From a virus (lineage: Duplodnaviria; Heunggongvirae; Uroviricota; Caudoviricetes): a DNA stretch of 64,000 nt. The position numbers were made by a program, and so were the translations under genes. The DNA lies in IMG/VR virus record IMGVR_UViG_3300021255_002251. One strand, 5' to 3'. Under the pieces are notes generated by a model that searched no databases, was not told where the DNA came from, and saw nothing but the letters and a program-made list of their open reading frames with translations. Below are positions 20,948-39,612 of the stretch, one piece after another (positions within the stretch are counted from its first letter, which is position 1; each line of letters starts with the position of its first letter).

Positions 20948-21000
20948 GGTTAATCTCGCCTACTGGTTGTTCGTCCTTCTCTTCCCAAAATGCCCAAGCA

Positions 21001-21655: not shown

Positions 21656-21691
21656 AAAAACGAAAGCCCACCTCCTTTCGGAGGTAGGCTT
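21656..21691 (-). terminator. Intrinsic terminator after the major capsid gene
   Basis: Minus strand agcctacctcc-gaaa-ggaggtgggct followed by ttcgttttt. Confidence 0.8.
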
Positions 21692-21717
21692 CCTTTGCCG
21701 TTTTGTCGGCTCTCCGA

Positions 21718-22812
21718 TTAAATACCGAAGAATCGGACAATACCGAGCGGCTGCTCCACAAACGTACCTGCCGTAGCATCCGAGTAGAGCTCGTAGAGGC
21801 CGCTTGCGCGAGGCACCGAACCCACGAGACGAACCGCCGCAGGAACGATCTGCTCCGCAACTGGGGAGCCAGCGAGCTCGTCCAGCTTGAGGTACATAAT
21901 GTTGTCGCCTGCGAGGGCATTGTCGAACTCGGGGATAACCACGAGGTCTGCCTTTGGCCAAGTGTCCGAGATGTACTTGCGGACGCTGATGCCGTAGGAG
22001 TTGACCTGGTTGAGGAACTGGTCGCAACCGAGGGCGATGCCGATTTTGAAGGCATGCTTGGACGGAATGAAGTTGCCAGCGCACTGCTTCTGGAGTTCGG
22101 CAACGGCCGTGTTGAGGTCGGTGACAATCTCATAGAAGTTCTTCTTCGACCACTCAGTCTCTCCAGCGCTGTTCTCTGGAACGGCGATGTAGGGATTGAG
22201 GTTGGGGTCGTTCAAGATACCGTAGGTCTTGTTGTACCCCAGGTTGTAGCCGAAGAAGGCAACCGCATTGGTGTTGAGCTTGAAGGCGAGGCCGAGTGCC
22301 GCGCGGTCGCTCTCGTATGCGGAGGACTTCTGACCGATGGCCGCAAGACGAGCCTCTTCCAAAGCACCCGTGAGGATACCCTGTGCGAAGCGTACGATGG
22401 TGCGGTCTTCCTGGTTGTAGTTGTACCGAGCGAGCGGTGCCTGAGCGTGGTCTCCGTAAGGACGAACCGCACCCGTGAGCTCACGCAGACGGAGGACGAC
22501 GCTTTCCTGATACCACTCTCCGTAGGTGGAGCGGCCGAGGAATTCATCGGCAGTCGTTGCCTGCGTCACAACCGTGATAATTTTGTTCATCCAGTGCTGG
22601 AGGAACTGCACGGGGACTTGGGCCGTTGGGTTGGTTACGCCTTGTGTAGGCATCGCATCCATGACGTACTTGACGCCGCTGGACTTGTCGTTGAACGATA
22701 CGCCCATCAGCGCAAGATTCTCCATCGTGCGCAGGTTCTCAGGGGCCTCGTCGAGGGCGAAGCCCTCTACCTTGACCTTGGGCATACGGAATTTGCATTC
22801 TGTGAAAGCCAT
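21718..22812 (-). CDS. Major capsid protein (DUF2184-like)
   Basis: VMDAM...PVQFLQHW...YGDHAQAP..YNY..EDRTIVRF..G....LEEAR...AFFGYN...TYGILNDPNL; high-expression codon bias. Confidence 0.9.
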   Translation of the reverse strand: MAFTECKFRMPKVKVEGFALDEAPENLRTMENLALMGVSFNDKSSGVKYVMDAMPTQGVTNPTAQVPVQFLQHWMNKIITVVTQATTADEFLGRSTYGEWYQESVVLRLRELTGAVRPYGDHAQAPLARYNYNQEDRTIVRFAQGILTGALEEARLAAIGQKSSAYESDRAALGLAFKLNTNAVAFFGYNLGYNKTYGILNDPNLNPYIAVPENSAGETEWSKKNFYEIVTDLNTAVAELQKQCAGNFIPSKHAFKIGIALGCDQFLNQVNSYGISVRKYISDTWPKADLVVIPEFDNALAGDNIMYLKLDELAGSPVAEQIVPAAVRLVGSVPRASGLYELYSDATAGTFVEQPLGIVRFFGI

Positions 22813-22840: not shown

Positions 22841-23353
22841 TTAGCCGTTGGCGGTGGAATCGTCAGGGCCGTAGGCCTTCATCCCGTTCACCTCCACAAC
22901 GAGAAGGTCGGCATCCTCGGTAGCACCCTTCTGCTGCCAAATGACTGCCGCATTCATCTTTGCGAGAATGGTGGCGAGGTTCTTGTACTGAATCCACACG
23001 TGGCCGGCGGTCATGCAGGACACGACCGTGCCAGCGGGAAGCACGAGCGACGGAGCGAGCGCTGCGCCCTGGCCAACGCCAGTTCCGTAGAGCGCATACT
23101 CAGGCGCATTGACGATTACGCCCTGGCCTTCGACGAACGAGCCGATTTCGGCCGCATCAGCGAGGGTCGTGGTGTGGACGACTGGGCCATAGGCCACGTC
23201 GTAGATTTGACCGGGAGTACCGCCGATGAGCGCTGCCGCCCCCGCCGAATACTTCTTGGTCTCGTATACGGGATTTCCATCCGCATCAACGCCCGTCTGA
23301 ACCTTAACAGTTCCTTCGAACGTCCGCCTCAGGATTTCTTTCTGAAGTCCCAT
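22841..23353 (-). CDS. Head decoration / cement protein
   Basis: 170 aa between protease and capsid; MGLQK...GVIVNAPEYALYG...MTAGHVWI pattern. Confidence 0.6.
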   Translation of the reverse strand: MGLQKEILRRTFEGTVKVQTGVDADGNPVYETKKYSAGAAALIGGTPGQIYDVAYGPVVHTTTLADAAEIGSFVEGQGVIVNAPEYALYGTGVGQGAALAPSLVLPAGTVVSCMTAGHVWIQYKNLATILAKMNAAVIWQQKGATEDADLLVVEVNGMKAYGPDDSTANG

Positions 23354-23393: not shown

Positions 23394-25301
23394 TTAGTTG
23401 CCGAGGAACTTTAGAAGGTCCTTGGAGGAAGCCTTCGGCTGTTCAGTCTTCGGCGCCTCGTCCTGCACGATGACGGGTGCGGAAGGAATCTTGTCCTCGA
23501 ACACCTCTCCATTCGGAGCGGCATCCATGGCCACCGCTGCGGCATATCCGCGCACGGCTGTGAGTACCTTCTCATCGTCCGCCTCATCCATTACGAAGGC
23601 GAGATTGTCGATGTGCTTGGCCGCAAAGCGGGCAACGTCGATTACTCTCATAGGAGCTGAATCGAATGTTGCCTTGATGCGAGGACGGAGCTTGCTTGCG
23701 AGAGCCTGCGCCTCGGTGTATTCCGCGATGAAAGCGGCATACTCGTCCTGCGCGACCTTGGACTTGCCAGGAGGCTGGTTGTCATGCTCGGCCTTGACGT
23801 CGGCCTCGATGCGCTTCTCCGCCTTGTCCTCGGTGCCCTTGGATTCAATAGCCTCTGCGATTGCCTCGCCCGGCTTCGGCTCTTCAACCTTCTCCGCAAC
23901 GATTGCAACCTTCTCTGGCTCCTTGCCGTCCTTGGCCGCCTTGTCCTCTGTGTCCTTCTCCTTCGGCTCCTTCTTCTCCTCGGTTCCGCCCTGCAGGGCT
24001 GCAACCGGGGTAGGAATGGAAGGATCGGTCACGCCAGTTCCGCAGTCCTTCGCAGCCTTGTCTCCGCAAGCCTTGTCTTCAGTTTCCTTCTTGCACGTGC
24101 AAGGGTCGCATCCGCACTTGTCGCAGACATGGACTTCGGTCTTGGGGGCCTTGTCCTGTGCATCCTGCCCATCGGCGGGGTTCTCTCCGTTAGCCGGAGA
24201 CTTCACCTCGGTAGGAGCAGGTTCCTTCGCTTCTGGAGCAGGGGTAGGTGCAGGAGCGGAAGCGGCGGAACTCTCCGGTGCGGGGGATTCGGCTGGCTTC
24301 TCTTCTGGCTTCGGAAGTTCGGGAGGGGTAGGAGCATCGGCATCGTCCTTCGTGGCCTTGGGGGCCTTGTCGGTCGCATCCTTCTCTCCATCCTTCTTCT
24401 CGCACTTGCCGGCCTTGCAGCGCTCAAGGGCTTCCTTGCGCACTTCCGGAGGGAAGTCCGCGAAGTCTAGGCAGTCTTGAGCCAACTGCTCGTCACCACC
24501 CTTAATGGCGGAAGCAAGGGCCTTGGCTCTATCGAGCTCCTTGGTCTCTTCTTTCTTTGTGTCTTCCATTGTTGGGTATCCTTCGGGTAATGAGTCGAAC
24601 GTCACGACCGCTTGGTCATACACACAGACGCTCGACCCACAACGCCCATGTTTTACGAGGGCAAGATGATTGCCCCGCAAATTTGTCTGCTTGAACATGT
24701 AGGGGACGCCCTCATATTCGCCGTCCTCCTGCTCATAGATGCAGGTGTAGCCGAGGGAGAGTTCCCTAATCTTGCCGTCCTTGAGAATGTCCTTCATTCG
24801 GTCGGTGTAGATGCAGAAGTCCGCGATGAGGTAGCCCGGCTCGTCAAGGGACGGACGGACATTGTAGATGCATCCGTCGTTCGGATTCTTGTCGGCGGAA
24901 TTGAGCTTCTTGTCCTTTTCGTCCTTGCTGTTCTTCTTTTCGTCGCCAATCATCAGGTGACCGACACGAATCGGAAGACCGTTGAAAGAATCAATCGCCT
25001 CTGGGTCGAAGAGCGCATCTGGGCCGCGGAGGACAGGGTATAGCTTGTTAGGCTCCAGCCCGAACTGCATCTCATATTCTGGAATCGGGTCGCCGTCCGC
25101 ATCCTTCTCGATTGCTCCGCTCTTCGTGCGCTTCCAGATTATCTCCCCAAGAGCATCCCTCTTGATGATGGGCTTGCCAGTAATAGGATTCTTCTTGGGC
25201 TGGTCAATCTGCTCGCCAGTGTACGGAAAGACACCTACGCGGGAGATAGGGTTTGCCCTCTGTCTCCTGTATCCGAACTTGTCTATGTAGCTATGCGCCA
25301 T
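23394..25301 (-). CDS. Prohead protease-scaffold (DUF2213-like)
   Basis: NPISRVGVFPYTG...R.PDALFDPEAIDSFNGLPI...H...RELSLGY.C.Y.....Y...Q.NLRGNHLALVKHGRCGSSV, followed by an acidic scaffold tail. Confidence 0.92.
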   Translation of the reverse strand: MAHSYIDKFGYRRQRANPISRVGVFPYTGEQIDQPKKNPITGKPIIKRDALGEIIWKRTKSGAIEKDADGDPIPEYEMQFGLEPNKLYPVLRGPDALFDPEAIDSFNGLPIRVGHLMIGDEKKNSKDEKDKKLNSADKNPNDGCIYNVRPSLDEPGYLIADFCIYTDRMKDILKDGKIRELSLGYTCIYEQEDGEYEGVPYMFKQTNLRGNHLALVKHGRCGSSVCVYDQAVVTFDSLPEGYPTMEDTKKEETKELDRAKALASAIKGGDEQLAQDCLDFADFPPEVRKEALERCKAGKCEKKDGEKDATDKAPKATKDDADAPTPPELPKPEEKPAESPAPESSAASAPAPTPAPEAKEPAPTEVKSPANGENPADGQDAQDKAPKTEVHVCDKCGCDPCTCKKETEDKACGDKAAKDCGTGVTDPSIPTPVAALQGGTEEKKEPKEKDTEDKAAKDGKEPEKVAIVAEKVEEPKPGEAIAEAIESKGTEDKAEKRIEADVKAEHDNQPPGKSKVAQDEYAAFIAEYTEAQALASKLRPRIKATFDSAPMRVIDVARFAAKHIDNLAFVMDEADDEKVLTAVRGYAAAVAMDAAPNGEVFEDKIPSAPVIVQDEAPKTEQPKASSKDLLKFLGN

Positions 25302-25356
25302 TTCCGTTGAAGCTCCAGCATGTCATTTTTGGCTAATCAATGCCAACTGGGAAAAA

Positions 25357-25983
25357 CTATGCTTGCTCCACTTCCTCTTTTGAGGGGCCTTTCACTATGT
25401 ATTTTGTGGCTTTTTCGTCCATATCCACAAGGCATCCTTTCGCCTTTGCGAGTTCCACCATCTTCTCTATTCCGCCCTCTATGACTTCAGCAACAATCTT
25501 TGCATCTGTGTTAGGCTCATCAGCAGGTGCTTCATCCTGCGTGGTCTTCTCATCCTGTGCGGTAGAAGCAGCCTCGCCATTCGGAGAAGCTTCCTCCTCC
25601 ACGGCTTCAGGGTCTGCTATCGCTGGCTTTGCAAGGTTCTTGGAGACTTGGAATAGCTGCGTTAGGACGGCGGCTAACCGATTGTAGGCATCCTGCTTCG
25701 TCACCTTTATCTCATTGGGTGTAATGTCGTCCGCTTCGTCAACGGCTTTCTCGAACGGGCAGTTGCCTGGTTTAGCCCTGCAATGCTTGCGATGCTCGAG
25801 TAATTCTTCGCCCGACAATATGTGGTCTTTGTTGGAGAACTCCGCTATCTGCTTGGCGGATTCCTCTTCCCCATGAGGTGCTTCCGCCTGTTGCTGGCGG
25901 GCTTCTGCTGCTGCTGCATCCGCTATAGCATCGTCCTGTGCGGACTTGCTATACATCTGGTTCTGGTAGTCGAAGAAGTTCAT
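25357..25983 (-). CDS. Acidic hypothetical protein, putative head-internal
   Basis: 208 aa; carries the His/Cys motif LLEHRKHCRAKPGNCPFE shared with the two giant proteins. Confidence 0.6.
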   Translation of the reverse strand: MNFFDYQNQMYSKSAQDDAIADAAAAEARQQQAEAPHGEEESAKQIAEFSNKDHILSGEELLEHRKHCRAKPGNCPFEKAVDEADDITPNEIKVTKQDAYNRLAAVLTQLFQVSKNLAKPAIADPEAVEEEASPNGEAASTAQDEKTTQDEAPADEPNTDAKIVAEVIEGGIEKMVELAKAKGCLVDMDEKATKYIVKGPSKEEVEQA

Positions 25984-25985: not shown

Positions 25986-28900
25986 CTAAGTCCTCTTTTC
26001 CATTTTCTCCAAGACATTTGCAACGGCATTGGCAACGATTGTCATGTTGTCTGGGGCTTCGTCGTGTCCAAACCTAATGCGGTTGAATTTCTTCTGGACT
26101 TCCGCCCGCTCCTTCTCGTTCTTGGAATACTTGCGAACATGCTTGTATTCCGCCTCCGCTTTCTTGCCCTCTTCCGTTAGGCCATAAGTGCCGTCTTCAT
26201 TCTTCACGAACCCCTGATAGTCCGGGTGTGTCGTGTCAACGTCAATCTGGGCTTCTGGCTCAATGTACTCCTTGCCCTTCTCATCCGTCTTGATGAAGAT
26301 TCTTCCATAGGAGCCGTTAGATGGGTGTCTGATGAACACCACACCGTTCTTGGTGCGGGCTGGCGCCTTAAACTGGTTGTCCGTCACGAATTCCCATCCA
26401 GCAGGAAGAAGGTTCTCCATCTGTTTTACCTGTTGCGGAGTTACCTTTGAAGTAGCCTTGAAGCCTGGTGCTCCATAGAACTTCTGCTCACGAACGGTAG
26501 AGCGTAGTTTCTCATCCTTCTGTGCCTGTTCCTGCTGTTCCGCTTCAGCCTTATCCTCATCTGGAGATTCTGGTGCGGCTTCTTGTGTCTTCGTGGCTTC
26601 CTCTCCTGCAGGCTTTTCCTCCTCTGGTTCGAAGATGTTAAGCATATCTTCCGCAGAGCCACCCGCCTCGAACTTCGCTTTGGCTTCGTTGAACCTCTTC
26701 TTTAGGGCTTTCCTCTCTTCACGGAGCTTCTGCTTGTCCCTTACCTTTGTGTTTGGCTTTGATAGGGCTTTCTCGATGCGCTCTCTTTCGGCATTGAAGG
26801 TCTCTTCAATGTCCTTCATGGTGGCGGCGGGAGAGTCCTCATCATCGTCACCATTTTCCTCTGGAGTGGGGGATTCTCCCTCTTCACTTTCCCCTTCTGG
26901 AGAGCCACCATCCATTGATTCGTCTTCTGGAGGAGGGAACTTCATATCGACAAGCGCCATCTTCGTGTTGAAGTCAGAATCCGCCTTTTCAAGTGCTTTT
27001 TGAAGCTTCTTCTGGGCATCCGCCGTATCCTCTCCCTGGTTGTAGGTATCCCATGCTTTCGCTTTGGCTGCATCTCTTACCTTGGAGAGGGTCGCTATTG
27101 CATCATCCCTAGAACCGTCCTTGCGCCAATCCGTATTCTCCTCTTTCGGGGTTTCTTGTGTAGGAGATTCGCTGCTTCCCAAAGGGGCTTTTGCTTCCTT
27201 CACTTCTTCGAACTTGACTTTTATTTTGTTGTCTTTTAGTGAAGGGTCGCTACCCTTTTCGGGAATTTGCATAGACAGGAGATGATTTACAATCTTGTCC
27301 CCATTCGTATTCGCCATTTCCTCATTGACAAATGCAACCCGATTTAAGACGCTAGACCTACCCGCCTGATCGAACCCTGATTTTGTCAATGTCTCGGTCA
27401 TGAATGCGACTTTCCCATTTCCAAGATTTACCCTAACTACAAAACTATCTGGAATAATGCCATCAGAATTACGTACTTTTTCCGCACCAGCTTCAACAAT
27501 GGCATTAAGATCCTCTATGTCAATTCCTTCTGGTCGGCCTTGCCATTCATATCCCTTATCAGCAGCATATGTTGCTATAGGAATCTCAACTTCTCCATCT
27601 GGCAGTTCTTTCTGTGTTGGGAAAGCTGCATTAGCTGATTTCACTTGTAAATTAGCTGTAGGAATGCTAGATGATTCATTCCCTTTTTCCCCACCCGAAT
27701 TTTTTTTAGGCGGTGAGGCTTTCCAATGCTTCTCGCCGTTCACATTTTCTTCCGTAATCTCCCAATCCGACGGGAAAGCATTCTTGAAAGCATCCATGAA
27801 TCCTTCCTCGGCCACCATCGAGACAGAGTTGCCCTTCTTCACGGCAGCGGCAATTGCATCCAGATGTTCCTGCGGAAGTTGCGGCCCTTCTCCACCACCC
27901 GAATCTCCTCCTCCGTCGGTTGGCGTCGGAGCACCCTTCATGTTGTCCCGATAGTATGCTGGTATTGCCGCTACTTCCTTGTCGGAGATGAAGCATCCGC
28001 GCCCTCTCGTCTGCTTGCCCTCCTTGTCGGTCATTATGAAGTCTCCGCTTCCCGCAAGACTCTTTGCCGCAGCAGATGCCTTTGCATCGTCTGGGGCCGC
28101 CTTGAAAGCGATAGAAGCCGGAGCATTAGCCTTTATGTCTCCCGGAATGGAGGCAACATCAGCCCGCTGCGTGGCGAGTAGACAGTTGATGCCGACAGAA
28201 CGGCCAAGAGCCATAATCTGGCTCAAGTCCTGCTTCACCCTGTCTGAAACTTCGGGATTCTTCATTATGGAAGCAACCTCGTCGAATGTCATAAGGACAT
28301 GAGGCATCTTCTCCTCTGGGTGTAGCTTGTTGTATTCCGTAATGTTCCTGTCAGAGTTGCCTTGGAACTCGTTCTTCGTCGGATCGAAGTCCTTCACCGC
28401 ACCGCCTATCTTGGCGATGCGATCATCCATGAGCGCCTTAAGCGAACTCACTACGTTCGCTATGTCCTGCGGCTTCTGTGCTCTTGGATATAGAAGATGA
28501 GGAGAACCGTCCTGCGAACGGAATTCGTTCTTCGGGTCTAGGAGAACTAGCCGTGCCTCATCTGGCGTCTTTGCCATCTCTAGGGAGTTTATCGCCGCCA
28601 TTAGGAACACGGACTTGCCGGAACCAGATTCGCCCGTCACGATTGTATGAGGCTGCTTGGCTAGGTCTAGGTTGACGTTCTTTCCAGATGAATCCTTGCC
28701 CAATGTCACAGGAAGTCCCGCCTTGTCCGCAAAGTCCTTCCATTCGTCGCTCGCTATGCAGGAGGAGAAACTTACGTCCCTCATCTTAAGGTTAGTAACC
28801 TGCACGGCTACCACATGAGGCTTTCCGTCAGCATATTCTATCTTGGATACGGGCGTCCCCAATGCGCCCTTAAGCGATTCCTTGACCTTCTTGCTGTTGG

Positions 28901-30926
28901 CTGCCGTAATGTCGAAAGCGGGATCTACCTTGAACTCTATCGTTGTCGCAGACGGCCCTACGCTTATGGATTCTATGTCTCCTACGGGTAGCCCTTGAGC
29001 TCCTAGGCTCTCCTGCAGGACGGAGGCAACCTGGTCCCCGAAAGCCTTGTCCGCATCAAAGTCCTTTGGCGGGTCAAGTATGGAAATCGGTGGCTTCCCT
29101 CCCTTGTAGTCGTTCGGAAGCGGCTTGAATGGTTCACCGAGTTTTGGCTTGTCCATCTCTCCGAGTTCCTTGGAATACTTCTCCTTCCAAGCCTGGAACT
29201 GCTTGACCGCCGCCATGTTGTCCTTCGGAGACTTTGCCTGCGAAATCATGTCCTGTATGACGGCAAGCTCCATCTTCGCATCGTCGGGCAGCCCTTCCTT
29301 CGCTGCATAGTTGGCTATGGTGTTCTTGATAAGAGCGCCCGATATGCCGTCTCTCACCATTTCACCATTCTCAGAGCGCTTCATCTGGTCCCAAGCACCA
29401 GAGATTCTATCCCATCCGGTAATGATTCCCTCTCCGCGAAGACCCGCCATGAAGGAAGAAAGCATCGTGCGGAGGAGCCCCTTGCCAGAGACATCGGTAT
29501 AGACGGTGCCGCCTACCTGATACTTGTTCTTCCCTACTTGGAACTCCGAGTCGTTAGGGGTAGGTGTCCCCTGATGTGCAGGCGCTCCGCCCTTGTTCTT
29601 GTTGGGTGGAGTTGTAGGGGGTGTTTCCGAAGGTGGAGTAGTAGGTGGAGTCTCAGATGGAGGTTCGCTACCATCGCCTCCTTCACCTCCGCCGCCGCCC
29701 TCTCCAGAACCATCGGCTGGTGGCGAAGGAGGTGTAGGAGATTCACTTCCCAATGGTGTTTCTTTGACTTCTTCACTAGCAGAACTTTCAGAAGAAACGT
29801 CACTCATTCCTTCGTCGCCAAAGAACATCCTCTGCAATGCTTGGTACTGGTTCGCCAAGTCCTTGAACTCTGGGCTATCGTCCTTTAATCCGCCAACAAG
29901 CCACTCTATGTCAACCATCTTCTGGAAGATTTCTTTCTTCTCTGGATTGGCCGCAAGAACCATCGCCTCATCAGGCTTTATATTTCTCGAACTCTTTCCA
30001 TCGCTTGTTGTTATTGTCTCGACTTGTGCTGCCGATTCACCAATTTGTCCGCTCTCACCACCAATCTCTTTTTGGGACGGTTCAAAATGAACAGTCCCAT
30101 CCCCATGGTCTACTTCAACATAATCTGGGTGCTGTTCCTTGAATAGATTTGCTCCTGCCCCATCCTTCTTGAAATCAACAGACCTGCCCTTCTCTTTAAG
30201 TCTAGCTTCTGCCGCTTCATGGATTCCATCTCCGAAAGCTTCAAACCCTTTTTTAATGGCTGCGGCTGTTTCTTCCTGTGGAGACGATGTTATCGTCCCG
30301 TCCTCTACCTTGTCCTTCAGTTCCTGTAGAGACTCTTCGGCTAGTGTGTTCCCAGACGCCGCCTGCTCCGTAAGATTCTCCAATATCCCCTCTTGAACCG
30401 TTGTCTGTGCTGGCAGTTCTCCAGCCTCCGTCTGGACCATCTTTGTCTCAGGAAGCATCTCTGACGGAATTTGCTCCATCATCTGCGGATTCTGTGCTAT
30501 CTGCTGCGCCTGCTGCTCTAGCATCTCTGGGCTTTGCGGTTGCGGCTCCATTCCCTCTTGCGGCTGTGCTCCACCTTGCCCGAACTTGGCCGCCTCTGCG
30601 GTGTGCATCCCGATAGCCTGCTGCATTGCTGTTGTAGGATCTAATCCCCGAGACTGCTCGAGTTCCTTCGCCATCTTTTTGATGTACGGGCACCTCTCTG
30701 GGTGTCCGTTCTTCGTGGCTTCGCATCCTTCTTGGATATGCTGTGAAAGAGACTTGTCGCCCCCAGAAGTAGGATTTGCACCAGGGGCCGCAGCCGCATT
30801 CTTCTTCAATCCGCTAGGTGCATTTGGCTTCTGCGGAAGGGTGTTCTTCGGCATATTGTTTCCCGGCATGGCATCCATCACGAATGCCTCGTCAAAAGCC
30901 TGCGCAAATGCTTCTTTAACTGTCAT
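25986..30926 (-). CDS. Giant putative virion-internal protein containing an FtsK/SpoIIIE DNA-translocase motor (about 27950-29040)
   Basis: Alpha-domain-like SISVGPSATTIEFK..AVQVTN; Walker A PHTIVTGESGSGKS; LVLLDPK; Walker B HVLMTFDE; LGRSVGINCLLATQR; IKAN..SIAF. No TM segment or gamma domain seen. Confidence 0.85.
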   Translation of the reverse strand: MTVKEAFAQAFDEAFVMDAMPGNNMPKNTLPQKPNAPSGLKKNAAAAPGANPTSGGDKSLSQHIQEGCEATKNGHPERCPYIKKMAKELEQSRGLDPTTAMQQAIGMHTAEAAKFGQGGAQPQEGMEPQPQSPEMLEQQAQQIAQNPQMMEQIPSEMLPETKMVQTEAGELPAQTTVQEGILENLTEQAASGNTLAEESLQELKDKVEDGTITSSPQEETAAAIKKGFEAFGDGIHEAAEARLKEKGRSVDFKKDGAGANLFKEQHPDYVEVDHGDGTVHFEPSQKEIGGESGQIGESAAQVETITTSDGKSSRNIKPDEAMVLAANPEKKEIFQKMVDIEWLVGGLKDDSPEFKDLANQYQALQRMFFGDEGMSDVSSESSASEEVKETPLGSESPTPPSPPADGSGEGGGGGEGGDGSEPPSETPPTTPPSETPPTTPPNKNKGGAPAHQGTPTPNDSEFQVGKNKYQVGGTVYTDVSGKGLLRTMLSSFMAGLRGEGIITGWDRISGAWDQMKRSENGEMVRDGISGALIKNTIANYAAKEGLPDDAKMELAVIQDMISQAKSPKDNMAAVKQFQAWKEKYSKELGEMDKPKLGEPFKPLPNDYKGGKPPISILDPPKDFDADKAFGDQVASVLQESLGAQGLPVGDIESISVGPSATTIEFKVDPAFDITAANSKKVKESLKGALGTPVSKIEYADGKPHVVAVQVTNLKMRDVSFSSCIASDEWKDFADKAGLPVTLGKDSSGKNVNLDLAKQPHTIVTGESGSGKSVFLMAAINSLEMAKTPDEARLVLLDPKNEFRSQDGSPHLLYPRAQKPQDIANVVSSLKALMDDRIAKIGGAVKDFDPTKNEFQGNSDRNITEYNKLHPEEKMPHVLMTFDEVASIMKNPEVSDRVKQDLSQIMALGRSVGINCLLATQRADVASIPGDIKANAPASIAFKAAPDDAKASAAAKSLAGSGDFIMTDKEGKQTRGRGCFISDKEVAAIPAYYRDNMKGAPTPTDGGGDSGGGEGPQLPQEHLDAIAAAVKKGNSVSMVAEEGFMDAFKNAFPSDWEITEENVNGEKHWKASPPKKNSGGEKGNESSSIPTANLQVKSANAAFPTQKELPDGEVEIPIATYAADKGYEWQGRPEGIDIEDLNAIVEAGAEKVRNSDGIIPDSFVVRVNLGNGKVAFMTETLTKSGFDQAGRSSVLNRVAFVNEEMANTNGDKIVNHLLSMQIPEKGSDPSLKDNKIKVKFEEVKEAKAPLGSSESPTQETPKEENTDWRKDGSRDDAIATLSKVRDAAKAKAWDTYNQGEDTADAQKKLQKALEKADSDFNTKMALVDMKFPPPEDESMDGGSPEGESEEGESPTPEENGDDDEDSPAATMKDIEETFNAERERIEKALSKPNTKVRDKQKLREERKALKKRFNEAKAKFEAGGSAEDMLNIFEPEEEKPAGEEATKTQEAAPESPDEDKAEAEQQEQAQKDEKLRSTVREQKFYGAPGFKATSKVTPQQVKQMENLLPAGWEFVTDNQFKAPARTKNGVVFIRHPSNGSYGRIFIKTDEKGKEYIEPEAQIDVDTTHPDYQGFVKNEDGTYGLTEEGKKAEAEYKHVRKYSKNEKERAEVQKKFNRIRFGHDEAPDNMTIVANAVANVLEKMEKRT
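29605..29666 (-). repeat. Pro/Thr linker repeat (PSETPPTT x2)
   Basis: SEPPSETPPTTPPSETPPTTPP in the 1646-aa protein, synonymously diverged at DNA level. Confidence 0.7.
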
Positions 30927-30962
30927 CTCTAAATCCTCTCAAAATGCCAAAAATGCAAATGG

Positions 30963-33900
30963 TCATGTACTCTTCGCCCCTAAGATTTGAGCAACCGCTC
31001 GTTCCATCTCTTCACGACTTCCAAGAGACTTAAGTTTTGAGAGAAGTTCGTCTGGATTGACATCTGGATGGAGGCGCTTCATCATATCAATGAAACTGGA
31101 AGCACCTGAGACATCGCCTCTGATGTCGTCACCAGAATCAAAGCGGCGGGAGAGCGGAATCACATTGCCGTTGTCGTCGTATGTCACGGGGTCGGCGGAC
31201 TTGACCTGCCTTGCTGACATCACCGCATATTCTATAACTTTTCCCATCTCATCTTCTGGGTGCTCACCAAAATATCCATCGTATTTCAGCAGCGACATTC
31301 CCTTAGGAGTGATTTTCAAAACTCCGTCATCCCCGAATTCAAATTCATTTTCCCCCGTTTTTATTGCATCCTCATATTGTTTTGTGAATTCATCGATCCG
31401 ATCAGAGCTCCTGCCATGCAGAGCCTTTCTACCTCCGTCATTCATGTCTAACGGATTCATTAGATTTACAAAACACGAAATTTTGTTCTTTCCGTATTGA
31501 GGTTGCTCTCTATCAGCAAAAAACAATCCAGGCAATCCATCCCATTCAATAGGCCCTTCCCAAGGAACAGCGGGAACTGTCCAAGAGGAATCTGTATTAT
31601 GGAAAACGATTTTTGGCAATCCATCATCTGCAACCACCTTTGTATTGGGGAATGCCCTCCCCGCAACCTCACGAACCATCTTCGCAGCGGTCTCCATGTC
31701 CCCCTTCTTCACCGCCTCCATGTATGCCGCATCCTCTGCGGCGGACACAATCGGCTTCTTGACTATGCTCTTCCTCTCTCCCCCATCTTCTCTTTTCTCA
31801 CCTTTGCTGATACTGCCCAATGTTTTCCCGCTCGTCATCTGTTTCACCATGAAGTCAGAAAACTCATCGGTTGACATCTGGTCTATGCCAGATGTATCCA
31901 CATTGTTAAGCCCAGCCGCAGACACTAGCCCTCTCCATGCCTCTTTAACTACTCCCCAGAACCGCTGATACCACCTTCGCCCTCCCCGCGACTTGTTAAT
32001 CTCTTCTATCGCTTTTGAAGTCTTATGCCCTATGATATGAGCCCACACCTCTTCTCTCTGTACTTCCTTGTCTTCCCCTTCGTAGTTAGCCTTTACTTCG
32101 TCCCATACTGGTTTCGCCGTAGGTGAATCGACAACTTCGTTCATCTTCTTGAGAAGGGAATCGTTGCCATTTCTTGCCATCTGCTCAGCATACTGCCATG
32201 TCGCATGTCCGCAAAGTTCATGCCCTATCGTGTCTGCATCCGCCCCTTCATATAACACAACCTCATTAGTATTCCGATTATAAGTCCCTACAACTTCGCC
32301 ATTATTATCACGAAAACTTATGACTTCTCCCGATTCTCCTTTTTTTTCGTCTCCCCCCTTTACACCCGAAGGCATATCTGGTATAATTTCTCCCAGTTGT
32401 TCGGCGGAGAAATCTTCCTCCATAAGAACACCATGGGTCTTGAGGATTGAGTCTCTTGGCAATTGCAGCCTCTGAGCAGATTTCTTCAAGCCCTTTTTGC
32501 TTACATATCTCAAATATCCTTCGTCTATCCACTGCTGCAAATTATCAGGCTTCTGCCCGTAAGCCGAGGCAATTGTGTTTTCCCTAGCAGTACCTGATGC
32601 CTCTCTATCTAGTTTCAATGGGACAACAGATTTTGCATTCCCATGCTTATCTAAAAGATTCGTCAGAATTACTATCGCATTGGGGTCTGACTTTGAATCA
32701 AAAACGGCAACAGGATTATCTAGATCAAGTAGAAGGTTACGAAGTTCCGAAATCGGTATCTCATGGTACTCATAAAGGCTATTCCTTATATTCCCTATCA
32801 TCTTATGTATGGTGCCGCCCATAATCGTGATGGGTCGGTCTGGGACTCCTAATCTCCTTAGCACTGCAGGAGTGTGTTCTAACAGTGTATGGTGCCTTGT
32901 AGCATCTGCCCCCGCTGTTTTGTGTTCAAAGGCATCTAGGATTCGATTCCAATTGTCCTGCTCACTTTGTCTAATGCTCTTGCGGGTATTTGAAGAATCC
33001 ATTTCATGTGGTTTGTCAGAAAACCTAATGGAGACTCCTTTAATGAAGGATTTTAGTTTATTGGCGATTTTAGCTAAGTTCTTTCGGCTTGAATTCTCTT
33101 TAGACAATTCGTCAGCCTTATCTGTTTCGGTCTCTGTCTTCAACTTATTGCGGAACTTGCAGGTATCTCCTTCATGGTAGCCGCCGGGGTGGTGTCGCCT
33201 ATCGTGTTCCTGCAATGTCTGGTCTTTCAGGGTGTCGGCATCCTCCACCAATGCTTCATACAATTCATCCTGTGCAGTCTTGTCCTTCTCTATCTTACCG
33301 CTCTCCATTATGCGGGCAAACTCCGCAGCCATCTCTTCTGGTGAATCTAGCCTCGTTAGATAGGCCAAAATAGCCATTGGATCTATGTCTGAATGGTGCT
33401 TATTCATCAGTTCCTGATAGTCGAACATCTTCTGCCCATCCACATACTTCTTGTCTATCCGTATGTTGTCATTTCGAAAGGAGACATAATCCCACCCAAC
33501 TTCATTACCATCCTTAATTGGCTTCTTATAACTATCAACTGGATATTTGATGCCATCTATGCCAGAATTCGCTAAGGCTATAGATGCATCTTTAGGGGTT
33601 CCAAAATGCGAAACCATAAACCGATACAATTCTTCACCCGTTCTTTCTCCAATCTGCTGTTGCCATGCGTCAATTAATTTCTGCCTTTTCTCCTCATTAT
33701 ATTTTCCTGAACCCTTCAACTTCTCCAAAAATGGATTCACTATTGCTTCTATTGCTCTTTTCTTGTTGTCCTCACTTATAGGATCGTACCAACTTAACAA
33801 GTGGCTTTCGTCTCCTTCTGGTCTGTTTGTAAAAAATGTCTGTTCATAAATCCATTCGTGGGGCATGTCATATTCATGCCCATGGTCCTTAAGTTCTTGT

Positions 33901-35372
33901 AGTATCTTCTTATTTTTATCAACCCGGATCCCGTCATCTATATCCATCTGTATCATTTTCATTGCTTTAGAAAGACTCCCCCAATGTTCTAAAGCCTTTG
34001 ATGCATCTATCTCTACTGTATCTTTTGGTTGCCTACCTTGTTTAGTTATAACGGCAGAGAAGGTCAGATATGCTTCATCGATCTTTCGCTCTAATGTTTT
34101 TTGTCTTGCTAATTTAGCATATCCTTCTGCAACCTCTTTTTTATTACTCCCATAAAGTCCCCATCCATAAACCTGATTCCCTTCCCCAGTTCCTATTGCC
34201 AATAAACTCGGCTTGTCATAGTTCGCCGCACTCCCCGTGAATATGTGCGAAATCCCCATTGGCTTTGGAGGCTGCACTTTCGCTTCTTCTTTTCCATTTT
34301 CTTGCTTCCCAGACACATCACCGCGAATGTCGTCACCATCGTCAAAACGGCGGGACAGAGGAACGACCTTACCGTCATCATCATACGTCACAGGGTCAGC
34401 AGACTTTATTTTACTCGGGTCCCAGAGTGCAATAGACTTACCCCCTTCATCTCTTACCATGAAACTATCATGTCCATTATCTATAGCTATTGCTTTACTA
34501 TATTGATCAGGGCCTAAATCATGCCCTTTATAATACCCTCCCCAAGCGCTCCAGTCTGGTACAGATTGGAATCTCCTTTGTGAGATTGTTGGAAGAGGCT
34601 GCTTTTTATATGTTCCATCGTTCTCATTCCACCCAGCACCATATGCTATAGACAATGCTTCATGATATGCATCTTGTTCTTCTTTCGGAAGCATCACCTC
34701 TTGTTGTCTAAGTTCTTCCATTTCGCTTTCAGTTTGAACGAAGTCTGGTAGATTATCATAAAATTCTCTTGCCTCCTTATCTGGAGAAACATTATGAATG
34801 CTTCTGCAATTCAAAAATACAGGAATTATATGAAACTTATTGACTTTGCTATCTTCAGGCCGAGGCTGCTCTCCATACCTTTCGTTTGCACCTGCTATAG
34901 CTCCATCTCTCGCACCTTCTTCTGTAGGAGCAAAAAATATACTACCTCTACTAGGGACAATGAATTTTTTTATGTCACTGCTAGTACCATGATAAAAAAT
35001 CTTTGGATTACCTTTTTCGTCTACAACTATGGTTTCAGGAAATGCCCTAGCCGCCACTTCCATAACCATTTTGGCGGCGGTCTCCATGTCCCCCTTCTCT
35101 ACTGCTTCAATGTAGGCGGCATCCTCTTCTGGGGTGACTATGGGTTTCTTCAATGGTTTTTCGGTAGCTATACTTTCTTTCGGGGCGGAATTAGGATTTT
35201 CAATATCCGCCTTGTCAGATTCAGTCTCTTTAGAAAGTCTCTCCCTAAACTTGCATGTGTCCGTTTCAGGATTGAATCCATGTGGGTGCTTTTCCTTGTC
35301 GTGTTCAGCCAAAGACTTTTCTTTAGGCATAGCATCAGAAACATATGTCTCGCCTAACAAGGCAGACACCAA
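30963..35372 (-). CDS. Polyvalent protein: ART-PolyVal-like x2, further ART-like module, MuF-C/PBECR-like domain, zincin-like HExxGH
   Basis: VDEKGNPKIFYHGT and VADDGLPKIVFHNT followed by (I/V)KSADPVTYDD.G.V.PLSRRFD; IGTGEGNQVYGWGLY; TPAVLRRLG..DNPVAVFDS..NTIASAYG..WIDEGYLRY; DTIGHELCGH. No ATG or clear RBS at the track start, so the true start is probably via frameshift from 35399..36079. Confidence 0.85.
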   Translation of the reverse strand: MVSALLGETYVSDAMPKEKSLAEHDKEKHPHGFNPETDTCKFRERLSKETESDKADIENPNSAPKESIATEKPLKKPIVTPEEDAAYIEAVEKGDMETAAKMVMEVAARAFPETIVVDEKGNPKIFYHGTSSDIKKFIVPSRGSIFFAPTEEGARDGAIAGANERYGEQPRPEDSKVNKFHIIPVFLNCRSIHNVSPDKEAREFYDNLPDFVQTESEMEELRQQEVMLPKEEQDAYHEALSIAYGAGWNENDGTYKKQPLPTISQRRFQSVPDWSAWGGYYKGHDLGPDQYSKAIAIDNGHDSFMVRDEGGKSIALWDPSKIKSADPVTYDDDGKVVPLSRRFDDGDDIRGDVSGKQENGKEEAKVQPPKPMGISHIFTGSAANYDKPSLLAIGTGEGNQVYGWGLYGSNKKEVAEGYAKLARQKTLERKIDEAYLTFSAVITKQGRQPKDTVEIDASKALEHWGSLSKAMKMIQMDIDDGIRVDKNKKILQELKDHGHEYDMPHEWIYEQTFFTNRPEGDESHLLSWYDPISEDNKKRAIEAIVNPFLEKLKGSGKYNEEKRQKLIDAWQQQIGERTGEELYRFMVSHFGTPKDASIALANSGIDGIKYPVDSYKKPIKDGNEVGWDYVSFRNDNIRIDKKYVDGQKMFDYQELMNKHHSDIDPMAILAYLTRLDSPEEMAAEFARIMESGKIEKDKTAQDELYEALVEDADTLKDQTLQEHDRRHHPGGYHEGDTCKFRNKLKTETETDKADELSKENSSRKNLAKIANKLKSFIKGVSIRFSDKPHEMDSSNTRKSIRQSEQDNWNRILDAFEHKTAGADATRHHTLLEHTPAVLRRLGVPDRPITIMGGTIHKMIGNIRNSLYEYHEIPISELRNLLLDLDNPVAVFDSKSDPNAIVILTNLLDKHGNAKSVVPLKLDREASGTARENTIASAYGQKPDNLQQWIDEGYLRYVSKKGLKKSAQRLQLPRDSILKTHGVLMEEDFSAEQLGEIIPDMPSGVKGGDEKKGESGEVISFRDNNGEVVGTYNRNTNEVVLYEGADADTIGHELCGHATWQYAEQMARNGNDSLLKKMNEVVDSPTAKPVWDEVKANYEGEDKEVQREEVWAHIIGHKTSKAIEEINKSRGGRRWYQRFWGVVKEAWRGLVSAAGLNNVDTSGIDQMSTDEFSDFMVKQMTSGKTLGSISKGEKREDGGERKSIVKKPIVSAAEDAAYMEAVKKGDMETAAKMVREVAGRAFPNTKVVADDGLPKIVFHNTDSSWTVPAVPWEGPIEWDGLPGLFFADREQPQYGKNKISCFVNLMNPLDMNDGGRKALHGRSSDRIDEFTKQYEDAIKTGENEFEFGDDGVLKITPKGMSLLKYDGYFGEHPEDEMGKVIEYAVMSARQVKSADPVTYDDNGNVIPLSRRFDSGDDIRGDVSGASSFIDMMKRLHPDVNPDELLSKLKSLGSREEMERAVAQILGAKST
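31095..35150 (-). repeat. Duplicated cassette flanks in the polyvalent gene (cassette 1 about 34305-35150; cassette 2 about 31095-31765)
   Basis: KKPIV...EDAAY.EAV.KGDMETAAKMV.EVA.RAFP and KSADPVTYDD.G.V.PLSRRFD.GDDIRGDVSG each occur twice around divergent cores. Confidence 0.9.
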
Positions 35373-35398
35373 TTCGTCGCTAACTCTCTTTTCAGAAG

Positions 35399-36079
35399 CT
35401 ACTTTTTTTTTTCGTCTACAGCAGAACCATTCATCTGCTTGTCTTCGTTCTGAAGATAATTTAGCGCTACAGAAAGGGCGGTATCATACTTCTCATCGGT
35501 CTTTTGTTCATCTTCTCCGCCGTCCTTATCTTCTTGATTCGATTCTGTGGCCGATTCCTTCCATTCTGGCGGCTTCTCTTCTGCTGGGGGTGCATCTGTG
35601 CCCCCTTCGTTTTGCGGCTGCTCCTGTGCCTCTTCAATGGATTCCGTATTAGTCTGCTCTTCTCCGTCCTTAGTCTCTTCCGTCTGTTCTGACGATACTT
35701 CTGAGGTTCCAGTCTGTTCGCCGCCATCTCCATCTGCTCCCCCAGTCCCATCTTTCTCAAACCTCAATGTACCAGTTGGCTGCTGTCCGCCATTTATCTT
35801 ATCAAGAAGCTCCTGATAGTGCTTGATTGCATTCTCCTTATCGCTATTGTCAATAAGATACTGCAAATCTTCCGCCGTCATTGACTTCTCATATTCGTCC
35901 CTCAAATCACGATACTCCTGAAAGTCTTCTGGCTTGAACTGGTCATGAAACTTTGAGAAGTAAAATGAAATAGCAAGCCGCTCCATTGCTCCACCTGGGG
36001 CATTCATGAAAATGTCCTTCCAAGTCGGGTTCTGCATGAACTCCATTACGGCTTCGGTGACTTTATTAGGGTCAATCAT
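35399..36079 (-). CDS. Hypothetical protein, probable N-terminal part of the polyvalent protein
   Basis: Conserved-looking N-terminus (NPTWKDIFMNAPGG..RLAISFYFS) plus an acidic tail; ends GAA AAA AAA AAG TAG. Confidence 0.7.
   Translation of the reverse strand: MIDPNKVTEAVMEFMQNPTWKDIFMNAPGGAMERLAISFYFSKFHDQFKPEDFQEYRDLRDEYEKSMTAEDLQYLIDNSDKENAIKHYQELLDKINGGQQPTGTLRFEKDGTGGADGDGGEQTGTSEVSSEQTEETKDGEEQTNTESIEEAQEQPQNEGGTDAPPAEEKPPEWKESATESNQEDKDGGEDEQKTDEKYDTALSVALNYLQNEDKQMNGSAVDEKKK
35402..35412 (-). other. A10 run / A AAA AAG slippery site
   Basis: The -1 frame from the run (AAA AAA AAA GTA GCT TCT GAA AAG AGA GTT AGC GAC GAA TTG GTG) is open and is the frame of 30963..35372. Confidence 0.7.
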
Positions 36080-36161
36080 GTGCAATTTCCTTCCGAAAAG
36101 ACTAGACTCTTTCCTAGGAATTGCCTAGATGGTAAAACCTCCTCTCTAGTAGTAAAGACAC

Positions 36162-36194
36162 AAAAAACCGCTCCCCGATTGGCAGGGGAGCGGT
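36162..36194 (-). terminator. Intrinsic terminator after dnaN
   Basis: Minus strand accgctcccc-tgccaatc-ggggagcggt followed by ttttt. Confidence 0.9.
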
Positions 36195-36227
36195 AGGATT
36201 GGCAAAGAAAGAATTGTTCTTTGGAAG

Positions 36228-37337
36228 TTAGACCCTAAGAGGCATCACCACATAGGTGTAGTCGTCGGAATCGCTCTTGCGAATCACGGCAGGCGCACCC
36301 GCTGCGGTAATCTTCATCACAATCTCATCCTCATCCATCGCCATGAGCGCATCGCGGACATACTGCGGATTGAAGCGCATGTCGATGGTGTCTCCGTCGT
36401 ACTTCACGGGAATCTCATCGTGCGAAGAGCCGAACTCGGTATCGCCCGAATTGAGCACGAGGTTGTTATCCCCGAACGTGAGCACGACGCATGGAGAATC
36501 CGTTGCGGAGGTGAACACGGAAATGCGGTCGAGCGCACCGAGGAATTCCACTCGGTTCATGGTCACGCTACTGCCGTCAGCCTTGGGAACAACCTGCATG
36601 TAGTTCGGATAGACCTCATCGAGGAGCTTCGTGATTACGATGAGCCGAGGCGTCTTGACGAGCAACTGTCCCTTCGCCGTGACGAGTTCCGCATTGCCCT
36701 CCTTCGGGAGCTTCTTTGAAAGCATATCAACCGCCTTGCGGGGAATGATATACTGTCCGGTGAAGCCCTTCGTGTTCTCGATGCTACAGTCTAGCATTGC
36801 GAGACGCCGCCCGTCCGTGCCAACAGCCTTGACGATTCCCTCACCCTCCTTGAAGTCGAGAAGGACGCCTGACAGCGTACGGCGGGTATCGTCCTGACTC
36901 ACGGCGAAAGCCGTCTTACGGAGCATTTCGCGGATTGCATTGCTCTCGATTGTGCAGGTTGCTCCATCGGGTGCCGGAATGGACGGAAACTCCTTGGCCG
37001 CAAGCCCCTTGAACTTGAACACGGAAGCCCCTGCGGTGATTGTGGAGCAGTCCTGACCGTCAACGGAGATTTCAATAGTCCCGTCTACGACCTTTCCAAC
37101 CGCTGCGGCAAACGGCTTGACGGGGATTGTGGTAGCGCCAGGCTCCAGAATCTCGCACTCAGCATTTGCAACTAGGGTCACGTCCAAGTCGGAGCAGGTA
37201 AACTTCACCTCTCCGTCCTTTGCTTCCACCTTCACGTTCTGCAGAACTTGCAGAGCGCCCTTTGAGCCGACCACGGCCTGTACGTTGTTCAATGCCTCCG
37301 ATAGGGAGGCCTTGCTTATTTTTATGTGCATATTCAC
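36228..37337 (-). CDS. dnaN: DNA polymerase III beta sliding clamp
   Basis: 369 aa; SDLD, FAVSQDDTRRTLSGV, AVGTDGRRLA, YPNY..VVP, FNPQYV.DAL, YVVMPLRV. Confidence 0.96.
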   Translation of the reverse strand: MNMHIKISKASLSEALNNVQAVVGSKGALQVLQNVKVEAKDGEVKFTCSDLDVTLVANAECEILEPGATTIPVKPFAAAVGKVVDGTIEISVDGQDCSTITAGASVFKFKGLAAKEFPSIPAPDGATCTIESNAIREMLRKTAFAVSQDDTRRTLSGVLLDFKEGEGIVKAVGTDGRRLAMLDCSIENTKGFTGQYIIPRKAVDMLSKKLPKEGNAELVTAKGQLLVKTPRLIVITKLLDEVYPNYMQVVPKADGSSVTMNRVEFLGALDRISVFTSATDSPCVVLTFGDNNLVLNSGDTEFGSSHDEIPVKYDGDTIDMRFNPQYVRDALMAMDEDEIVMKITAAGAPAVIRKSDSDDYTYVVMPLRV

Positions 37338-37386
37338 TCTTGTTTACCTTTCTTTGTTTTCCAAAGATGACTCTAAATCCAACTAG

Positions 37387-37416
37387 ATTATACCACACCT
37401 CCTGTTAGGCTTTCAA
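37387..37416 (-). promoter_or_regulatory. Sigma70-type promoter for dnaN
   Basis: TTGAAA-N18-TATAAT with TGTGG extended -10. Confidence 0.8.
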
Positions 37417-37433
37417 TGGGGTGTGGAAGAAAA

Positions 37434-37985: not shown

Positions 37986-38005
37986 TGTCCTTGCTTCGTT
38001 CTTCT

Positions 38006-39585: not shown

Positions 39586-39612
39586 CGCTCTGGTTCTCCT
39601 TGGACAGGCGAT

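Follow-up and report, generated by a model that had tools for sequence, protein, structure and literature searches.

Could a tailed phage carry a DNA translocase of the FtsK type in its head and deliver it to the host together with the genome? This question is raised by a single gene in a 64,000-nucleotide stretch of DNA (the window) from IMG/VR virus record IMGVR_UViG_3300021255_002251, a 223,335-bp record of an uncultivated tailed phage. The gene occupies positions 25986-30926 of the minus strand, the strand which carries almost every long open reading frame (ORF; ≥330 amino acids, aa). Its product (P0001, below also the giant protein) has 1646 aa, a mass of 178 kDa and a pI of 4.9. An initial annotation had described it as an FtsK motor inside a giant, probably virion-packaged head protein, and the extent and length that it gave for the ORF are unchanged here. 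Coordinates follow the numbering of the window unless they are marked as genome positions or belong to loci of related phages (L-numbers). The phage has a contractile tail, as a tail sheath protein is present (phrog_205), and its capsid, adaptor and sheath proteins are of the E217/Pa193 type.

An intact FtsK motor

P0001 carries a genuine and intact FtsK alpha/beta motor, composed of the following elements.

27927-29105, minus strand: FtsK alpha/beta motor, residues 608-1000, opening with PPISIL (Pfam, phmmer, Foldseek)
28611-28634, minus strand: Walker A motif GESGSGKS, residues 765-772
28278-28295, minus strand: Walker B motif LMTFDE, residues 878-883 (DE at 882-883)
28200-28202, minus strand: arginine finger R909 (GR909)
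28164-28172, minus strand: TQR921

The Pfam profile FtsK_SpoIIIE (PF01580) matches residues 734-922 (E 3.8e-25; 89.1 bits against a cut-off of 24), and in PHROGs the protein matches a group annotated as 'FtsK/SpoIIIE-like protein' (E 2.6e-49). A phmmer search of the PDB aligns residues 608-1000 with the alpha/beta part of Pseudomonas aeruginosa FtsK (2IUU; E 1.8e-39), and the alignment starts at the PPxSxL motif which opens the alpha subdomain. The motor had previously been placed at about 27950-29040, which falls within the segment matched by phmmer. The AlphaFold model of residues 440-1090 has a pLDDT of 81. When it is compared by Foldseek with DNA-bound FtsK (6T8B), the TM-score by target is 0.83 and the root-mean-square deviation 3.2.

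Most of the individual residues tell the same story. In P. aeruginosa FtsK, R620 is the arginine finger, loop II contacts DNA through R632, G640 and K643, and loop I does so through K657 and R661 (PMC7321959). Alignment of that protein with P0001 pairs R620 with R909, R632 with R921, G640 with G929 and K643 with K932. In loop I, R661 is substituted by K949, and K657 falls in an alignment gap without a partner in P0001. The Walker A motif and R909 are invariant in the family and against cellular FtsK; D882 and E883 are invariant in the family and nearly so against cellular FtsK. The DNA-contact positions R921, G929 and K932 are invariant or nearly invariant in the family alignments. All four signatures named in the initial annotation (Walker A GESGSGKS, Walker B, the GR arginine finger and TQR) are therefore confirmed in P0001.

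Identity to cellular FtsK is only ~26-30%, and in the tree the motor forms a very long branch. A tblastn search of P0001 against phages returned the motor region as the sole match, at less than 32% identity, and a megablast search with 20 kb against GenBank phages returned no match.

With FtsK/SpoIIIE (2IUU, 6T8B) the giant protein shares the two-subdomain motor fold, Walker A and B, the arginine finger, the loop II contacts and the PPxSxL start. It differs in its position in a phage head operon, in a cleavable-looking leader, in extra domains without known fold, and in lacking both the N-terminal membrane domain and the gamma winged helix. The search for membrane helices gave no candidate in P0001 (maximum Kyte-Doolittle score over 19-mers, 1.15). 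The gamma winged helix (PF09397) gave no Pfam match either, at E≤0.01 over the whole protein and at E≤1 over residues 1005-1090 and 1490-1646. The absence of anchor and gamma domain, already claimed in the initial annotation, thus stands; the cellular FtsK proteins matched in the homology search all carry a gamma domain. Because it has neither of these domains, P0001 cannot read KOPS or activate XerD. One further likeness concerns Escherichia coli FtsK, which has a long P/Q-rich linker ahead of its motor; P0001 too has such a linker in front of the motor.

A leader shared with the capsid protein

How would such a protein be connected with the head? A possible answer lies at its N-terminus.

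30870-30926, minus strand: N-terminal leader, residues 1-19, amphipathic helix (MT.KEAFAQAFDEAF) ending in VMDA, then MP
30612-30755, minus strand: His/Cys 'knuckle' module, residues ~58-105, S-L-x-x-H ... C ... G-[LM]-x-x-x-x-A (alignment)

Among 19 family members, M1, T2, A6 and E13 of the leader are invariant, and M17 and D18 nearly so. A six-frame search of the 223-kb genome for V[MS]DAMP gives three occurrences, where 0.006 are expected. The motif lies at residues 50-55 of the major capsid protein (YVMDAMP at 49-55), at residues 16-21 of P0001, and from residue 11 of the MuF/ART protein encoded next to P0001 (YVSDAMP from residue 10). The first two sites are the VMDAMP correspondence between capsid protein and giant protein that the initial annotation had pointed out. 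In the capsid protein, VMDA aligns with the AMDS preceding the first ordered residue (66) of E217 gp25, and in the E217 capsid residues 1-65 are invisible (PMC10329688). Since the aligned residues precede the first ordered one, VMDA-MP is a plausible capsid maturation cleavage site, at which P0001 would lose 19 residues. We regard the leader as a putative capsid-targeting peptide combined with a protease site.

Two other proteins of the operon have a comparable N-terminus. The MuF/ART protein bears a YVSDA-MP leader and then a knuckle. Its leader is kept at the protein level, with different residues, in a 477-aa homologue in L004, so this region is translated. The 208-aa protein encoded on the other side of the FtsK gene is laid out as a helix, A-Q-D-D-A (AVAMDDA in relatives), a spacer and a knuckle. 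An N-terminal cassette of this kind is thus common to three successive proteins encoded upstream of the protease. Within the family, knuckle residues H63, C79, G94 and A100 are invariant. Comparable knuckles occur in proteins of L004, L007, L038, L039 and L040, and the module has no match in Pfam. Leader helix and knuckle are kept in every lineage examined. A complex prediction of residues 1-110 with the 635-aa protease/scaffold scored 0.03 and was used for no conclusion.

A member of the head-gene unit

On the minus strand, the gene order is beta clamp, 228-aa protein, 1469-aa MuF_C/ART protein, FtsK giant, 208-aa protein, protease/scaffold, decoration protein, capsid protein, adaptor, leucine-rich repeat (LRR) proteins and sheath. 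The genes and signals around the giant gene are these.

36228-37337, minus strand: beta sliding-clamp gene, with its own early-type promoter and terminator
36167-36194, minus strand: terminator-like hairpin 3' of the clamp gene, upstream border of the head unit (10 pairs, 8 of them G-C, T run)
36120-36125, minus strand: GGCAAT core, putative late promoter, before the 228-aa gene
35399-36085, minus strand: 228-aa conserved protein of no known family, first gene of the head unit
30963-35372, minus strand: polyvalent protein of 1469 aa, ART-PolyVal at residues 118-326 and MuF_C at 864-960 (Pfam)
30943-30948, minus strand: T-N-GGCAWT core before the FtsK gene
25357-25983, minus strand: 208-aa protein with N-terminal helix, A-Q-D-D-A and an H..HC......C knuckle
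25339-25344, minus strand: T-N-GGCAWT core before the protease gene
23394-25301, minus strand: prohead protease/scaffold, DUF2213, Pa193_gp24 family (Pfam E 7.7e-31; PHROGs head maturation protease)
22841-23353, minus strand: decoration (cement) protein, 170 aa (PHROG virion structural protein; relatives match Phage_cement)
21718-22812, minus strand: major capsid protein, HK97 fold, E217/Pa193 type (phrog_264, E 5.8e-43)
21662-21693, minus strand: strong terminator-like hairpin directly 3' of the capsid gene, downstream border of the head unit (14 pairs, 8 of them G-C)
20989-20994, minus strand: T-N-GGCAWT core before the adaptor gene

The assignments of the head proteins are supported by structures. 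The capsid protein matches Pa193 gp26 (9B40; E 2.2e-47) and E217 gp25 (8FRS; E 2.6e-46), and the protease/scaffold matches the Pa193 gp24 chain of 9B40 (E 1.3e-15). The single 208-aa gene separates the FtsK gene from that of the DUF2213 protease, which agrees with the earlier statement that the giant gene lies two genes upstream of the protease.

Between the hairpins at 36167 and 21693 neighbouring genes are separated by 2-55 nt, and no other strong terminator-like hairpin was listed for the coding strand of this interval. The hairpin behind the clamp gene has an equivalent in L008, L029 and L040. By computation, the FtsK gene is established as a member of the head-gene transcription unit, co-transcription being judged from sequence signals only.

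The T-N-GGCAWT element occurs in 21 intergenic copies against 7.9 expected. Besides the sites listed above, it stands before the tail tube gene, a gene for a 3635-aa giant, and the genes that precede those for portal and TerL. Eight related loci and the distant L040 have it at corresponding places. Judging from position only, it is probably a phage-specific late promoter. The element often reads GGCAWT-N3-4-TAG, lies 13-65 nt upstream of structural and packaging units and loosely resembles the -24/-12 element of sigma-54, one base short. The positions listed for it include about 13999 in the window and genome positions 177288 and 220354. The clamp gene and a 141-aa gene are preceded instead by near-consensus sigma-70-like promoters with an extended -10 (37387-37416 and 39586-39658, respectively).

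Portal (phrog_146, E 1.3e-63) and TerL (phrog_3717, E 3e-38) are encoded far away in the same genome. Searches of the genome with Pfam DUF4055 and Terminase_6C found nothing, and PHROGs then located both. Because these two exist elsewhere, the motor is not needed for packaging.

Conservation of the locus and lineage of the motor

The homology search yielded ~33 clusters of relatives, which are 915-1849 aa long and, over the motor region, 50-99% identical. A profile search of 1.84 billion representatives returned ten family representatives (at 50% identity) and P0034, a 928-aa relative which starts within the motor; the lower matches are all cellular FtsK proteins with gamma domains.

Gene context was compared in nine related loci (L005, L007, L008, L027, L028, L029, L038, L039 and L040). 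The order clamp, small gene, FtsK giant, protease, decoration and capsid recurs in all nine, with one to three further small genes sometimes inserted between the giant and the protease. This synteny holds down to a protease identity of 36% (L040). Linkage of FtsK homologues to head genes, on which the initial annotation had made its reading depend, is hence present in 9/9 loci. In L040 the portal gene lies directly upstream of the clamp gene, so the FtsK gene occupies the classic slot between portal and protease. The Pbunaviruses, whose genomes measure 66 kb, seem to have no FtsK gene in this slot. In virions of Pa193, liquid chromatography-mass spectrometry detected gp20, gp21, gp24, gp27 and gp31, unaccounted proteins encoded near the capsid, neck and tail genes (PMC11456595). 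By their numbering, gp20 and gp21 follow the portal gp19 (PMC11456595).

Three of these loci differ in the giant protein itself. L038 encodes 3006 aa (799-9819) with a canonical motor and a different C-terminus, L039 encodes 1137 aa (5842-9255) with a partly degenerate motor, and in L040 (5521-9480; 1319 aa) the motor is at the extreme C-terminus.

In the motor-domain tree, a branch with support 93/87 has all head-linked motors on one side. Cellular FtsK and the FtsK-like proteins of Bacillus phage Mater and mycobacteriophage Thibault lie apart from them; the Mater and Thibault genes are in non-structural regions, beside partition, Ku and RDF genes. The tree is compatible with a single origin of the head-linked motors and does not prove it, because L038 and L039 are long branches. 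Three giant FtsK-domain proteins (P0050, P0052 and P0063) were considered as further members of the phage-head type and rejected, as their contexts are cellular or conjugative.

Other parts of the giant protein

Boundaries between the remaining parts of P0001 were drawn from family alignments of 14 and 34 sequences and from two structure models.

29559-30596, minus strand: acidic Q/P/E-rich low-complexity linker, residues 111-456, net charge -38
29106-29558, minus strand: conserved domain X, residues 457-607, small beta sheet and helices, abutting the motor, with many invariant residues
27714-27872, minus strand: small alpha/beta module 3' of the motor, residues ~1019-1071, no recognisable gamma winged helix
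27210-27617, minus strand: variable longin/roadblock-like domain, residues ~1104-1239 (borderline fold match)
26490-27122, minus strand: K/E-rich helical hairpins or coiled coil, residues ~1269-1479
25989-26462, minus strand: conserved C-terminal domain, residues ~1489-1646, beta-rich core and helices

The initial annotation had called the protein acidic and mostly disordered. Its acidity is borne out by the pI, whereas 'mostly disordered' was an overstatement, because only ~40% of P0001 is of low complexity (residues 21-456 and parts of 1230-1500) and the rest is predicted to fold. The linker differs between relatives in both length and sequence. Domain X is modelled with a pLDDT of 70-88 and has no Pfam match and no usable match in the ESM Atlas. 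Between L039 and P0001, domain X is ~50% identical while the motor is only ~25% identical. The longin/roadblock-like domain rests on a borderline VIA match (Z 8.8 to 4ZY8, Z 8.3 to 8YQG); it is confined to close relatives and missing from the family consensus. The C-terminal domain is kept in the family and in L039 and is not conserved in L038 and L040. It has no usable match in the ESM Atlas. A fold search of the PDB and the AlphaFold Database with the C-terminal model gave nothing significant, and it barely probed this domain, as matches to the helical hairpins and to the longin-like domain took up the lists.

Pfam searches with the separate non-motor pieces gave nothing above noise. None of the hub domains MPTase, ART, ArdC-N, Snf2 and MuF was recognised in P0001, whose sole recognisable enzymatic domain is the FtsK motor. 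No paralogues of the leader region, domain X, the middle region or the C-terminal domain were found elsewhere in the genome.

Further features of the region

The slot of the MuF/ART gene holds variable cargo, since the protein is replaced or absent among relatives: L008 has a 782-aa MuF_C protein there, L004 has the 477-aa protein, and several relatives have none. The 228-aa gene closes with a run of ten A (about 35400-35412), and the MuF/ART gene starts shortly afterwards. This run is kept in L004 (about 6145-6160), where both ORFs overlap. The run could be a slippage site that fuses the 228-aa protein to the downstream leader-bearing protein.

The clamp gene has an odd position, inside the head module, across the clade; in L040 it is placed between the portal and the FtsK unit. 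The sigma-70-like elements read TTGAAA or TTGCAA followed by TGTGGTAWAAT, and most genes have a strong Shine-Dalgarno sequence. One relative (P0005) comes from a metagenome-assembled genome labelled 'Prevotella sp.'. As such promoters and strong Shine-Dalgarno sequences are both unusual for Bacteroidota, this label may be a binning artefact.

Downstream of the head unit, two LRR_5-type repeat proteins are encoded between adaptor and sheath (17531-20320, 929 aa; 16574-17506, 310 aa). Relatives have such proteins of up to 1443 aa, which may be fibres or host-binding proteins. Further giant ORFs are found in or beside the tail region, at 7861-12846 (1661 aa) and at genome positions 33304-44313 (3669 aa) and 44848-55755 (3635 aa). 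The 1661-aa giant has no PHROG match, and the 3635-aa giant has a GGCAWT element 13 nt upstream. In three relatives, genes of the TnpB/IS605 OrfB type (Cas12f1-like_TNB) lie beside or just 3' of the capsid gene, in the head-to-tail block (L007, 15411-16883; L008, 18619-20499; L028, 10150-11328).

Is the motor packaged and delivered?

The claim of a virion-packaged head protein is supported circumstantially, by the operon, the late-type promoter motif, the synteny in all nine loci and the leader with its capsid-protein site. We consider encapsidation and processing of P0001 fairly likely. From there we infer ejection into the host and assembly of the motor on DNA. The complete reading is that P0001 is a late head-operon protein which is built into the prohead, delivered with the genome and active in the host as a double-stranded DNA translocase. 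We hold it tentatively, as a serious possibility that we stop short of calling probable.

The process would comprise four steps. P0001 would be made together with the scaffold/protease and the capsid protein. The 19-residue amphipathic leader would then steer it into the prohead, where the DUF2213 protease would cut VMDA-MP as in the capsid protein; the motif shared with that protein and the E217 structure suggest this step. The remainder of the 178-kDa protein may stay in the head with the DNA and exit via the tail at infection, a step modelled on the exits of P1 DarB, N4 virion RNA polymerase and T7 gp16 through the tail. In the cytoplasm, six copies might finally assemble around the DNA, which is speculative. 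Without a gamma domain, sequence polarity would go unread, and direction could come from tethering through the long N-terminal linker, in the way that the membrane tethers cellular FtsK. The assembled motor would either reel in the rest of the >200 kb genome or sweep host proteins off the entering DNA, two outcomes to which we give about equal weight. Genome import and protein stripping, both proposed in the initial annotation, are compatible with intact motor residues and with the lack of gamma domain and anchor, and are speculative. Delivery itself gains support from the neighbouring MuF_C/ART protein, which belongs to a class predicted to be injected (PMC5512222). The most specific form of the proposal is that a clade of large tailed phages injects a capsid-borne FtsK ring, which is tethered at the entry site by the N-terminal linker, forms again on the entering DNA and reels in the remaining 100-280 kb of genome. 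In this form we doubt it, without dismissing it.

Several points weigh against a packaged and delivered translocase. A hexameric ring cannot pass the tail tube; the protein would have to cross it unfolded and assemble again afterwards, and delivery would have to bring in six copies or more. The E217 authors say only that the first 65 capsid residues are invisible, being either cleaved or disordered (PMC10329688). Some family leaders read VVEEK, GIEEAP or VMDELP instead of VMDA, and leader and capsid motif show no co-variation, as the capsid proteins keep YVMD[AS]MP while the leaders vary. L039 has an Asp at the loop II position of R632 (TQD for TQR) and has lost LLDPK, which suggests that some lineages may do without motor activity. 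The same protein keeps domain X at ~50% identity and the C-terminal domain while its motor degenerates, which hints that the non-motor parts may hold an important function of their own. Finally, the beta-clamp gene is a conserved near neighbour and leaves room for a link to replication.

This last point also speaks for an alternative in which P0001 is made late and stays unpackaged. It would work in the cytoplasm on replicated DNA, for instance untangling concatemers or feeding them to the terminase, or segregating or compacting the genome, and the N-terminal motif would be a regulatory or assembly tag and not an encapsidation signal. Late timing fits such packaging support equally well, and the FtsK-like genes of Mater and Thibault, with their non-structural neighbourhoods, offer a parallel. 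However, a terminator and a change of promoter type part the clamp gene from the FtsK unit, and no clamp-binding-like motif was found in P0001. The head-linked motors are moreover a lineage apart from other phage FtsK, and P0001 has no gamma domain with which to activate resolution of the XerCD type. The leader, for its part, matches the probable cleavage site of the capsid protein and recurs on the MuF/ART polyvalent protein. We therefore judge this alternative unlikely, though worth keeping in view.

If P0001 is packaged, it may instead act inside the head or at the portal, as an internal core, as an organiser of DNA, or as an inner motor or valve on the capsid side during packaging, when ATP could still diffuse into the porous prohead. 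All the evidence from head operon and leader applies equally here. A six-fold ring would fit the twelve-fold portal, very large genomes may need help in organising DNA in the head, and the better conservation of domain X and the C-terminal domain than of the motor in L039 hints at a structural role. A purely structural role nevertheless leaves unexplained the strict conservation of the catalytic residues across the main family, and an internal ATP-driven motor has no known precedent in tailed phages. A canonical TerL and portal are also present here. The long acidic linkers and variable accessory domains also look more like those of ejected or polyvalent proteins than like a fixed core. Such a role in the head appears improbable to us. 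As the genome-packaging ATPase itself, P0001 was rejected, because TerL and portal exist. An alternative or auxiliary packaging ATPase of the FtsK/HerA class outside the capsid, of the type of PRD1 P9 or poxvirus A32, could point to a motor of the same superfamily and to a weak match with a PHROG labelled terminase large subunit (phrog_2666, E 2.7e-11). It is very hard to reconcile with an HK97-type capsid served by a portal and a canonical TerL, with closest motor relatives which are FtsK proper with an alpha domain and not the short A32/P9 type, and with a 1646-aa protein whose N-terminal leader is ill-suited to a packaging ATPase. We give it hardly any weight.

Relation to known systems

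Close parallels are giant virion proteins with motors of superfamily 2 (SF2). DarB of phage P1 combines a methylase with a Snf2-type ATPase in a giant, virion-packaged motor protein. In Thermus phage Lalka27a, the 1715-aa SF2 helicase Lvh was found in virions, as was the DarB-like Gp2 (bioRxiv 10.64898/2026.04.20.719267). Like DarB and Lvh, P0001 is very large, is encoded among structural genes, contains an ATP-driven nucleic-acid motor and is presumed to enter the cell with the DNA. In contrast, their motors are of the SF2 type, and the Lalka27a proteins were seen in virions while P0001 is a predicted virion protein. SF2 enzymes are generally monomers, whereas FtsK forms a ring encircling duplex DNA.

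With polyvalent proteins (Iyer et al. 2017, PMC5512222), P0001 has in common a giant multidomain architecture, variable accessory domains and a leader like that of its MuF_C/ART neighbour. The survey of these proteins lists only the FtsK winged-helix domain and not the motor (PMC5512222). The context of the FtsK gene is that of polyvalent head genes: it adjoins the MuF_C/ART gene, lies upstream of protease and capsid genes and has the portal nearby in L040. It differs from polyvalent proteins in having one recognisable enzymatic domain and no hub domain.

Processed head proteins offer a model for the leader. The internal proteins of T4 carry a capsid-targeting sequence, which consists of a short N-terminal leader and a protease motif. 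Processing of head proteins in SPN3US is described in two reports (PMC10052503, PMC5694885). P0001 resembles the T4 internal proteins, and the propeptide-processed head and ejection proteins of giant phages of the phiKZ/SPN3US type, in its short leader, in a putative protease motif that the capsid protein has as well and in being encoded with head genes. However, the protease here is of the DUF2213 type, the motif reads hydrophobic-x-D-[AS] instead of LxE or S/A/G-x-E, and targeting and cleavage are putative. Active internalisation of phage DNA by ejected proteins is known from the T7 gp15/gp16 ejectosome and from the virion RNA polymerase of N4. These machines are functional analogues of P0001 if it imports the genome; they work as a channel or ratchet and by transcription, and neither is an ATP-driven ring translocase.

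A comparative study of jumbo phages treats FtsK only with regard to the packaging ATPases of membrane-containing viruses (PMC7824862), and the one FtsK-rich match in the literature is about the fusion of a gamma domain with a small terminase (PMC8190038). Full-text searching did not find an FtsK motor as a component of virions, of ejected proteins or of structural proteomes. Together with the polyvalent survey, this agrees with the initial annotation, which knew of no such description for tailed phages. Giant motor proteins as virion cargo are already known, with SF2 motors, and an FtsK-type motor in this role would be new.

Significance

The pressure in the capsid is thought to deliver only part of the genome, and the known active routes are transcription (T7, N4) and the T7 ejectosome. 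How entry of very large phage genomes is completed is an open question. FtsK is the fastest known translocase of double-stranded DNA (PMC7321959). If the proposal is true, a virion-borne FtsK pump would be a third and directly testable solution to genome entry, distinct from pressure and from transcription and the T7 ejectosome. Should the motor's task instead be the removal of host proteins from incoming DNA, the anti-restriction idea of the DarB type would extend to a ring translocase; this option parallels the Snf2 half of P1 DarB and Lvh of Lalka27a. The finding is of high interest, since a motor of this type implies another mechanism and the hypothesis lends itself to testing. Beyond the motor, the leader and knuckle cassette of three consecutive head-operon proteins is a candidate encapsidation signal, which could help to predict which proteins of metagenomic phages are virion cargo and could be used to bring foreign proteins into capsids.

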